A stretch of DNA of 64,000 nucleotides, taken from assembly GCF_013122565.1 (NCBI RefSeq), contig NZ_CP053258.1; one strand, given 5' to 3'. The position numbers were made by a program, and so were the translations under genes. Every line of letters starts with the position of its first letter. The stretch's first letter is position 1. The notes below the pieces were generated by a model. That model had not been told where the DNA came from. It did no database searches and saw only the letters and a program-made list of their open reading frames with translations. Below, one piece after another: positions 44,616-45,153 of this stretch. The DNA is from Escherichia coli (GTDB taxonomy: Bacteria > Pseudomonadota > Gammaproteobacteria > Enterobacterales > Enterobacteriaceae).

Positions 44616-44995
44616 AATGAATCCTTTTTCGATTTATGAGAATAAATACTCATTTAAGAGTGAAAACATTTTGCCTGCAAATGATTATCAGGAAATATAA
44701 CATTATCGAAGTATTCAAATTAACAACTATTAAATAATATTAAACATTTTTAACGTAAACATTAAGAATATTCATCTTGTTATCTGTCTGTATTTTAACC
44801 AGAATTAAATAAGTATTAGATGCCGTATGAATATCTCGAAATGTTGCTGTGTATCACATACAAATCATCACCGCAGGACCATAGTATTTACATAAGGTTT
44901 GTCCCCCGGAGGTAGTCATCGCAGCAATCGAGTAAATTAGCTTCACCACGGTATATTGTTTCCGTAGAATACCCATAATTATAAGAGAGGTTGTT

Positions 44996-45055
44996 ATGAT
45001 TGAACGTGAACTGGGGAACTGGAAAGACTTTATCGAAGTTATGCTTCGTAAGTAA
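44996..45055 (+). CDS. ypfM: 19-aa small protein YpfM
   Basis: atg att gaa cgt gaa ctg ggg aac tgg aaa gac ttt atc gaa gtt atg ctt cgt aag taa = MIERELGNWKDFIEVMLRK, preceded by an AGAGAGG RBS; matches the reported E. coli small protein YpfM between yffB and acrD. Confidence 0.7.
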   Translation: MIERELGNWKDFIEVMLRK

Positions 45056-45115
45056 TTCCTGAGACAAAGTACAAACAGCAAGAACCCGCTGAGCAGGTTC
45101 TTAATCGGAAAGTTG

Positions 45116-45150
45116 AAAAAGGCGACACATTGGCATGTCGCCTTTTTTAT
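45116..45150. terminator. Bidirectional rho-independent terminator downstream of acrD and ypfM
   Basis: aaaaaggcgacacattggcatgtcgccttttttat: 8-bp stem flanked by an A-run and a T-run. Confidence 0.75.
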
Positions 45151-45153
45151 TGC

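Follow-up and report, generated by a model that had tools for sequence, protein, structure and literature searches.

The stretch analyzed here, which we call the window, is 64 kb of Escherichia coli DNA (contig NZ_CP053258.1 of assembly GCF_013122565.1), and our subject is the gap at 44616-45153, which runs from the start codon of yffB (44615, - strand) to the stop codon of acrD (45154, - strand) and holds the very small gene ypfM. At 538 bp this is the longest gap in the window according to a crude open reading frame (ORF) call, in line with the first-pass annotation of this DNA, which had remarked on an unusual length of about 540 bp; the runner-up at 23942-24373 was rejected as an artefact of the ORF call with hyfJ inside. 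A RefSeq record with a 100% match gives the gene order ypfN, dapE, yffB (all on the - strand), ypfM (+) and acrD (-), and the names yffB, ypfM and acrD assigned from the letters alone were thus correct. The description of the gap as 'non-coding' does not hold: it consists of a divergent control region of about 380 bp, conserved in length, and the ypfM gene. The locus is already known as an annotated, experimentally supported gene with its control region. What we add is a comparative description (invariant residues, helix faces, synonymous constraint), a link to the published small RNA (sRNA) data and a conserved distal block. Every feature placed by the first-pass annotation was recovered, at most a few bases away from its coordinates. 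Coordinates of the features are collected in Table 1.

We first asked about the coding status of the 19-codon ORF, since 51 ORFs of at least 20 amino acids overlap the 3 kb around it and an ORF of 19 codons is by itself within chance. Its product, MIERELGNWKDFIEVMLRK, is annotated in RefSeq as 'ypfM: protein YpfM' (b4606 in K-12). Queried as 19 residues padded with one C-terminal Ala, the peptide matches the NCBIfam equivalog NF033843 (small_YpfM) with 59.2 bits against a cut-off of 33, over profile positions 1-19 of 19. Pfam returned no match for it, and a profile search of the PDB returned only a chance match of 9 residues (E = 1.6). That ypfM is a real gene follows from conservation and published protein detection, not from the mere presence of the ORF. 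For the comparison, 80 loci, one per species, were fetched via the neighboring YffB protein, a choice that avoids a bias toward the ORF. Of these, 74 have an ypfM ORF upstream of yffB and opposite to it in strand, in genera that range from Escherichia and Citrobacter to Yersinia, Erwinia and Dickeya, and together with the window copy they form the aligned set of 75 sequences. All of them begin with ATG, a length of exactly 19 codons plus stop is kept in 73, and the 57 distinct nucleotide sequences encode 23 peptides. Codon positions 1, 2 and 3 have entropies of 0.20, 0.20 and 0.68, the third position thus varying 3.4-fold more than the other two, and the pooled ratio of nonsynonymous to synonymous differences (pN/pS) is 0.15, below that of yffB (0.26). 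The first-pass annotation had proposed the substitution pattern across species as a check on the ORF, and this pattern is protein-like. Of the other ORFs in the gap, on both strands, none is conserved beyond Escherichia, except for frames that overlap ypfM and look conserved by riding on its nucleotide conservation. Finally, the peptide itself has been seen repeatedly by mass spectrometry, including top-down analysis (intact, with formyl-Met and 100% coverage), data-independent acquisition and parallel reaction monitoring, the last in minimal medium low in Mn2+ (PMC12529367). We conclude that ypfM is a real, already known protein-coding gene, neither of the two refuting outcomes named by the first-pass annotation being borne out.

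The signals around the ORF define a short transcription unit. A promoter scan of the region returned a single site, the sigma-70 promoter TTCACC-17-TAGAAT (P1), and Shimada et al. predict the same hexamers for ypfM beneath a peak of RpoD binding obtained by genomic systematic evolution of ligands by exponential enrichment (genomic SELEX; PMC3946193). Both hexamers are conserved across the 75 species. The accessible part of Table S1 of Kim et al., which reports transcription start site sequencing (PMC3415461), lists an ypfM start at MG1655 position 2588907 (4 reads, 19-nt leader); the 51 nt given as its context correspond to 44927-44977 and so place the start at 44977, seven bases past TAGAAT. 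A second ypfM start in the same part of that table (MG1655 2589017, 2 reads, 129-nt leader) maps to 44867. The Shine-Dalgarno sequence described as good by the first-pass annotation is present as AAGAGAGG, 5 nt ahead of the ATG of the 19-codon ORF. From 44977 to the T-run of the terminator, the RNA measures about 175 nt.

At the other end, a strong bidirectional terminator had been placed at 45116-45150, and we recover it at 45114-45149, with a folding energy of -18.7 kcal/mol (z -4.9) for the + strand and of -18.0 kcal/mol (z -5.5) for the - strand; 0 of 200 shuffled sequences are as stable. In its sequence, GAAAAAGGCGAC...GTCGCCTTTTTT, an A-run precedes the stem and a T-run follows, with a U6 tail in the RNA, and acrD ends 4 nt past the terminator. 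The GGCGAC/GTCGCC stem and the A-run and T-run are conserved across the 75 sequences. An imperfect hairpin, likewise expected at about 45080-45100, lies between the ORF and the terminator. A weak T-run follows this hairpin on the - strand. The folding energy of the hairpin is -9.6 kcal/mol (z -2.4) for the + strand and -14.5 kcal/mol (z -4.7) for the - strand, the latter being more stable because C-A mismatches turn into G-U pairs, and the hairpin may be a back-up terminator for acrD read-through rather than an ypfM element. Across the 75 sequences, the promoter hexamers, leader, ORF and terminator stem are highly conserved, while the 3' untranslated region (3'UTR) varies in length and sequence between genera. 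The arrangement, with ypfM divergent from yffB and convergent with acrD, is kept in 71 of 74 loci. The 3'-end tables of Adams 2021 do not list ypfM.

Table 1. Features of the yffB-ypfM-acrD region, in window coordinates.
Feature	Position	Strand	Basis and remarks
ypfM coding sequence, 19 codons + TAA	44996-45055	+	RefSeq, NCBIfam NF033843, conservation, published mass spectrometry
Main sigma-70 promoter P1 (-35 TTCACC 44942-44947, 17-bp spacer, -10 TAGAAT 44965-44970, start 44977)	44942-44977	+	scan 9/12; published start
Shine-Dalgarno AAGAGAGG, 5 nt before ATG	44983-44990	+	nearly invariant across species
sRNA-pairing segment (core duplex 45010-45018)	44995-45029	+	fragments joined to ArcZ and SdsR in chimeras
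Match to Rfam RF01409 (STnc250 Hfq-binding RNA), 3' part of ypfM mRNA	45035-45154	+	37.5 bits, E = 5e-6
Imperfect 3'UTR hairpin	45079-45103	both	variable; conserved only within a few genera
Bidirectional intrinsic terminator, common to ypfM (+) and acrD (-)	45114-45149	both	folding, A-run/T-run, conserved stem
Divergent control region, yffB-dapE-ypfN operon (-) / ypfM (+)	44616-44995		AT-rich, reportedly H-NS-bound, about 380 bp
Conserved block AAATATAACA	44693-44705	-	reads TGTTATATT, extended -10-like; about 20 genera in alignment
TTCATA-16-TTTAAT, yffB promoter predicted by Shimada et al.	44804-44831	-	PMC3946193; poorly conserved outside Escherichia
Distal promoter-like block P2 of ypfM, ending at weak start 44867	44835-44867	+	conservation; published start
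CATAGT/CATATT hexamer	44880-44885	+	conserved, at a fixed 20-21 nt after TCACA
Imperfect dyad of CAATC-N5-GATTG type, then TTAAAT	44917-44935	+	conserved; lies immediately upstream of the proximal -35, with its centre at about -54 relative to the main start
dapE	43128-44255	-
yffB	44259-44615	-
acrD	45154-48267	-

The 19 residues of YpfM, a soluble peptide, comprise four acidic, four basic and nine hydrophobic ones, and with eight charged residues in so short a peptide, membrane spanning is impossible. Ten residues are invariant (M1, E5, W9, K10, F12, I13, M16, L17, R18 and K19). When the peptide is drawn as a helix, the hydrophobic moment is 0.546, a value reached by 2.8% of shuffles; I2, L6, W9, I13 and M16 follow one another at a 4-3-4-3 spacing, and positions 4, 8 and 15, which vary, point about 160 degrees away from the hydrophobic face. 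The pattern suggests a single amphipathic helix in which the hydrophobic face and the charges flanking it are invariant and the opposite face varies. Most likely, such a helix would act by docking onto a larger partner protein.

The first-pass annotation had also considered that the region could host an sRNA. In a permissive Rfam scan, the one meaningful hit of the region is to the 3' part of the ypfM mRNA, which matches RF01409 over the full model (1-94), at a score that falls below the gathering score of 42 because the E. coli 3'UTR has 37 nt at the 13-nt insert of the model; no Rfam family reaches its gathering threshold anywhere in the window. In Salmonella, Sittka et al. located STnc250 between acrD and yffB, found it 4-fold enriched in Hfq co-immunoprecipitation and observed a growth-phase-dependent band, estimated at about 220 nt by Northern blot. 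STnc250 was reclassified in Salmonella as the ypfM mRNA by the very authors who had named it. Since no second RNA was found in the gap, the suggestion stands in so far as an Hfq-bound RNA is made here and fails in so far as it implied a separate gene: the suspected sRNA is the ypfM transcript itself. This transcript has what is expected of an Hfq-dependent sRNA in its terminator with a U-rich tail and in its Hfq binding (from Salmonella co-immunoprecipitation and from E. coli crosslinking, ligation and sequencing of hybrids, CLASH), but it is not non-coding, as its ORF is under purifying selection and is translated.

The CLASH data connect the transcript with specific sRNAs. Recorded with Hfq in E. 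coli were 13 ArcZ-ypfM hybrids (minimum free energy -17.6; exponential and transition phase), a pair that is also listed in RIL-seq (RNA interaction by ligation and sequencing), one chimera of the 3' part of SdsR (annotated as pphA 5'UTR) with the ypfM coding sequence and a single ChiX-ypfM chimera (PMC7213987). We mapped the ArcZ-joined fragment to 44995-45022 and the SdsR-joined fragment to 44995-45029, that is, from the start codon to codon 9 or 11. RNAduplex predicts a core duplex at 45010-45018 (A CUG GGG AA) with UUCCCUGGU of ArcZ, and SdsR shares the UUCCCUGG motif of ArcZ.

The codons at this site are constrained beyond the residues that they encode. The proportion of synonymous differences (pS) is 0.41 in ypfM versus 0.62 in yffB, with ypfM lower in 79% of species pairs, and along ypfM it amounts to 0.37 in codons 2-4, 0.23 in codons 5-10, 0.74 in codons 11-15 and 0.35 in codons 16-19. 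Around the pairing site, synonymous change is reduced about three-fold. More specifically, Gly7 is encoded by the rare GGG in 69 of 73 sequences, against a background of 0.17 in neighboring genes of the same species, and Gly at the variable position 15 shows ordinary usage (GGC 21, GGT 8, GGG 4). Glu5 is GAA in 75/75, Asn8 is AAC in 68/68 and Lys10 is AAA in 74/75. The 9-nt site is pairable at 9/9 positions in 60 of 75 species, including 10 with CUG changed to CUA or UUA, in which pairing is kept or improved. A conserved hairpin GAAG...CUUC over codons 14-18, drawn in the Rfam model, was considered and rejected: there are no compensatory changes, and GAG and TTG co-occur, breaking the stem.

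Upstream of ypfM, the control region is distinguished by its base composition. The first-pass annotation had called the 380 bp ahead of the ORF A+T-rich, quoting a string that we locate at 44730-44776, and they are the window's lowest in GC: 0.31 over 44616-44995, a value matched by 0.04% of 381-bp windows. GC drops to 0.20-0.28 across 44600-44850, and among all 200-bp stretches of the 64 kb the one with the lowest GC begins at 44613. The RpoD peak obtained by genomic SELEX between ypfM and yffB carries an 'HNS' flag (PMC3946193). The spacer between the two genes has a median length of 389 bp (minimum 202) and measures 384-391 bp in about 36 of 74 loci across many genera, although most of its sequence cannot be aligned between species. 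Such a near-fixed length suggests a constraint on distance or phasing, possibly from an H-NS nucleoprotein. A megablast with a 95% identity cut-off recovers the whole gap from 5425 of 5426 complete E. coli genomes. The AT-rich spacer is present in 5423 of 5426, and its identity to the window reaches 99% or higher in 62% of E. coli records, compared with 88% of records for the ypfM mRNA core. High polymorphism of this intergenic region within the species has been published and exploited for source tracking.

Conserved islands stand out within the unalignable spacer. One is the ribosome-binding region of yffB. Another is the block at 44693-44705, which from its sequence is a candidate promoter element of yffB; the 97-nt yffB leader of Salmonella (PMC5137417) roughly fits it, and the accessible part of Table S1 of Kim et al. 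holds no E. coli yffB start site. On the ypfM strand, the distal block P2 has the form tATTTCAAAATATTGC-N5-GTCACATAAAAT at about 44832-44864 and is conserved in most Enterobacteriaceae. In Citrobacter and Lelliottia, the promoter scan calls TTCAAA-18-TAAAAT at the corresponding site. The E. coli version is degenerate (CTCGAA-18-TACAAA), which fits the weak start at 44867, and in Citrobacter it is the proximal -35 that is degenerate instead. An invariant TTGC...GTCAC inside the P2 spacer looks like an operator, though it matched no known regulator, and the distal block as a whole, with the CATAGT hexamer behind it, resembles a regulated promoter. The dyad at 44917-44935 is a candidate regulator site or UP element.

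Several regulators were considered for these blocks. The consensus that we used for CRP/FNR is a symmetric TGTGA-N6-TCACA or TTGAT-N4-ATCAA centred at -41.5. A class II CRP/FNR promoter at 44840-44885 was rejected despite the TCACA-21 nt-CATAGT spacing: the left half is TTGC, not GTGA or TTGA, and the reported start is at 44867, with none near 44892. Compared by eye with consensus sites, the region gave no convincing match for Zur, Fur, MntR, LexA, OxyR, MarA/SoxS, PhoP, CpxR, ArgR, CytR, NsrR or MerR-type operators. In Salmonella, a MarA chromatin immunoprecipitation peak within the ypfM-yffB spacer and a 2.6-fold de-repression of yffB in a fur mutant have been published. As a separate observation, the fragment joined to ChiX in the single CLASH chimera lies at 44812-44840 (+), upstream of both published ypfM starts, and begins 7 nt past a weak TTGTTA-17-CAGAAT match (44777-44805). 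This one chimera hints at occasional transcription from inside the AT-rich spacer.

Taken together, we regard it as very probable that the locus is a known compound one, made up of a control region, a monocistronic ypfM gene, a helical peptide and an Hfq-bound mRNA that is paired by sRNAs. In the proposed sequence of events, P1 fires at 44977 to give a 19-nt leader with a strong Shine-Dalgarno sequence, behind which the 19 codons are translated, and transcription ends at the bidirectional terminator that also serves the convergent acrD, leaving a free-standing monocistronic RNA of about 175 nt. A second, distal promoter-like element, conserved in other genera but weak and degenerate in E. coli, would yield the 129-nt leader. 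The mRNA behaves like a small Hfq-bound RNA, with ArcZ pairing to codons 1-9, in and just past the ribosome-binding window, and SdsR probably pairing to the same codons through UUCCCUGG; abundant ArcZ or SdsR would be expected to lower ypfM translation, stability or both. SdsR represses yffB in Salmonella (PMC5137417), and therefore both divergent genes, ypfM and yffB, may share one sRNA regulon. Given that start sites, binding of H-NS and RpoD, association with Hfq and chimeras with ArcZ and SdsR are all found in published genome-wide data sets, the statement of the first-pass annotation that regulation and function are essentially unknown does not wholly hold for regulation and remains true for the function of the peptide.

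A number of points weigh against this reading. No function, partner or phenotype is on record for YpfM. The published start sites rest on very few reads (4 and 2, in the accessible part of the table), and the Salmonella band of about 220 nt fits neither of the two estimates exactly, which are about 148 nt for an RNA begun at the proximal promoter and about 250 nt for one begun at the distal promoter. The ArcZ link comes from chimeras recorded in genome-wide ligation data, and in a recoding simulation of ArcZ duplex energy the natural sequence outperforms, at the median, 75% of synonymous variants (89% for SdsR), which is a weak signal. Codons 16-19 (45041-45052) are constrained too, with Leu17 as the rare CTT in 59/75 and Arg18 CGT in 68/75, and for these ArcZ offers no explanation. 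The compared species are related, so that the counts represent non-independent events. In addition, E. coli Res13-Sevr-PER06-05-b-A carries an IS1A inside ypfM near codon 9 (locus L083, 2547-3295), and ypfM is therefore dispensable in at least one natural isolate. The pipeline annotation of that locus still places a 'ypfM' beyond the IS1A.

The alternative that survives best extends the role of the RNA rather than replacing that of the peptide. ArcZ and SdsR are sRNAs of the stationary-phase (RpoS) network, and the transcript of about 175 nt could be a dual-function RNA that also serves in trans as a decoy, sponge or regulator for both, the site at codons 5-8 being a riboregulatory element and not a target site. 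The transcript is built like an sRNA, with its small size, a promoter to itself, an intrinsic terminator and the U6 tail, it was first catalogued as an sRNA candidate with Hfq co-immunoprecipitation reads at its 3' end, and synonymous constraint is strong across the ORF. Moreover, 13 ArcZ hybrids rank high in a table where most pairs have 1, and the site matches the motif common to ArcZ and SdsR. However, a trans effect is not on record, ligation data are silent on which RNA regulates the other, and a pairing site near the start codon is the typical layout of a repressed target; the strong purifying selection on the peptide also shows that coding is not incidental, and the duplex-energy recoding test is as weak for this alternative as noted above. 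We therefore consider a trans-acting RNA improbable, though worth keeping in mind. The same low standing applies to its corollary, in which the frozen GAA-CUG-GGG-AAC titrates, or is co-regulated with, ArcZ and SdsR, and yffB belongs to the same post-transcriptional module.

A spacer that conceals a separate unannotated sRNA or micro-ORF, or that is a horizontally acquired remnant, is very unlikely. Its GC content, the lowest of the window, the reported H-NS binding (PMC3946193) and the ChiX-joined fragment upstream of both published starts would be compatible with such a content. Against this, the spacer has no Rfam match even at E = 10 and no ORF conserved outside Escherichia, the accessible part of the start site data shows no start within it, and the ChiX evidence is a single read; presence in 5423 of 5426 genomes, together with the conserved length, argues for an old core control region and not an island. 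The pure non-coding sRNA reading, with STnc250 as the functional product and the ORF fortuitous and conserved through its RNA sequence only, can draw on the match to an 'Hfq binding RNA' family and on nucleotide conservation even at synonymous sites, but it is already refuted by the three-base periodicity of variation and the low pN/pS, by codons 11-15, which are free at synonymous sites while their residues are fixed, by the ATG, stop and 19-codon length kept in 73/75 with an invariant Shine-Dalgarno sequence, by the intact formylated peptide (PMC12529367) and by the reclassification of STnc250 as a small mRNA by its own authors. A leader peptide or attenuator, in which hairpin formation and read-through to a gene downstream would depend on translation of the micro-ORF, recalls the order of a short ORF and two hairpins, the second being the terminator, yet it is excluded because acrD is convergent and no + strand gene lies downstream, and besides, the first hairpin and the spacing from ORF to terminator are unconserved and the fold offers no alternative anti-terminator pairing.

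Beyond the compound locus itself, the comparison yielded observations on the neighborhood. Six of the 80 yffB loci have no ypfM-like ORF, their upstream DNA being replaced by other genes. In Enterobacter sp. CC120223-11 (locus L051, 343-2664), acrD and ypfM are absent upstream of yffB, and two ORFs beginning with MPNIKDLNFDEIALVSGG (a double-glycine leader, microcin-like) and small hydrophobic ORFs are found instead. In Enterobacteriaceae bacterium RIT691 (L068, 300-2911), three tandem copies of an ORF of about 270 amino acids (MARNNHKLPPVTAEELAEIER...) replace acrD-ypfM. In Dickeya oryzae (L080, 2709-2765), ypfM still adjoins yffB, and acrD is absent, with cspE-like and crcB-like genes there; in Yersinia nurmii (L072, 1401-1457), ypfM still adjoins acrD and lies 1.5 kb from yffB. 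The ypfM orthologues of both species are without the GGG ArcZ-type site. On the other side of the control region, the accessible part of the table of Kim et al. lists an 8-read start inside yffB at about 44345 (MG1655 2589359), 270 nt upstream of dapE. As its reads outnumber those of either ypfM start, dapE may have its own internal promoter within yffB.

YpfM is among the smallest verified E. coli proteins, and ten of its residues are invariant across Enterobacterales. The defined hydrophobic face of the putative helix provides a handle for partner hunting, as the conserved distal promoter/operator block does for regulators, and ArcZ and SdsR are candidate regulators with published ligation evidence. 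At Gly7, the GGG codon offers a way in which one synonymous change could part RNA-level from protein-level function. If the RNA proves to be a sponge as well, ypfM would be a very compact addition to the small set of dual-function bacterial RNAs, tying a 19-residue protein and its RNA into the sRNA network of oxygen and stationary phase (ArcAB/RpoS).

Set against known systems, the window copy differs in nothing from the YpfM family (NF033843, b4606), with identical 19 residues, the position between acrD and yffB and the RefSeq annotation. Locus, strand relation, terminator and last five codons are common to it and STnc250 (RF01409), and by position the two are orthologous transcripts; STnc250 is filed in Rfam as an 'sRNA' though it is an mRNA, and the 3'UTR insert of E. 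coli is longer (37 vs 13 nt). SgrS/SgrT, AzuCR/AzuC and Spot 42/SpfP are short, Hfq-binding, self-terminated RNAs that are translated into a very small protein and have demonstrated base-pairing in trans. The ypfM RNA is alike in build, whereas what is recorded for it is pairing with ArcZ and SdsR, perhaps as their target. Another parallel is yneM/mgtS (STnc570), which besides ypfM was the small-peptide mRNA that Sittka et al. recovered with Hfq in Salmonella. Like ypfM, it is a stand-alone mRNA for a tiny protein, initially taken as an sRNA candidate, growth-phase-dependent and associated with Hfq. The likeness does not extend to the products: MgtS is a hydrophobic membrane protein with MgtA as its partner, unlike YpfM, in which 8/19 residues are charged and which does not span a membrane. 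Finally, the ypfM/acrD terminator has the same design as other bidirectional terminators between convergent genes, with a sequence that is unusually conserved across genera.

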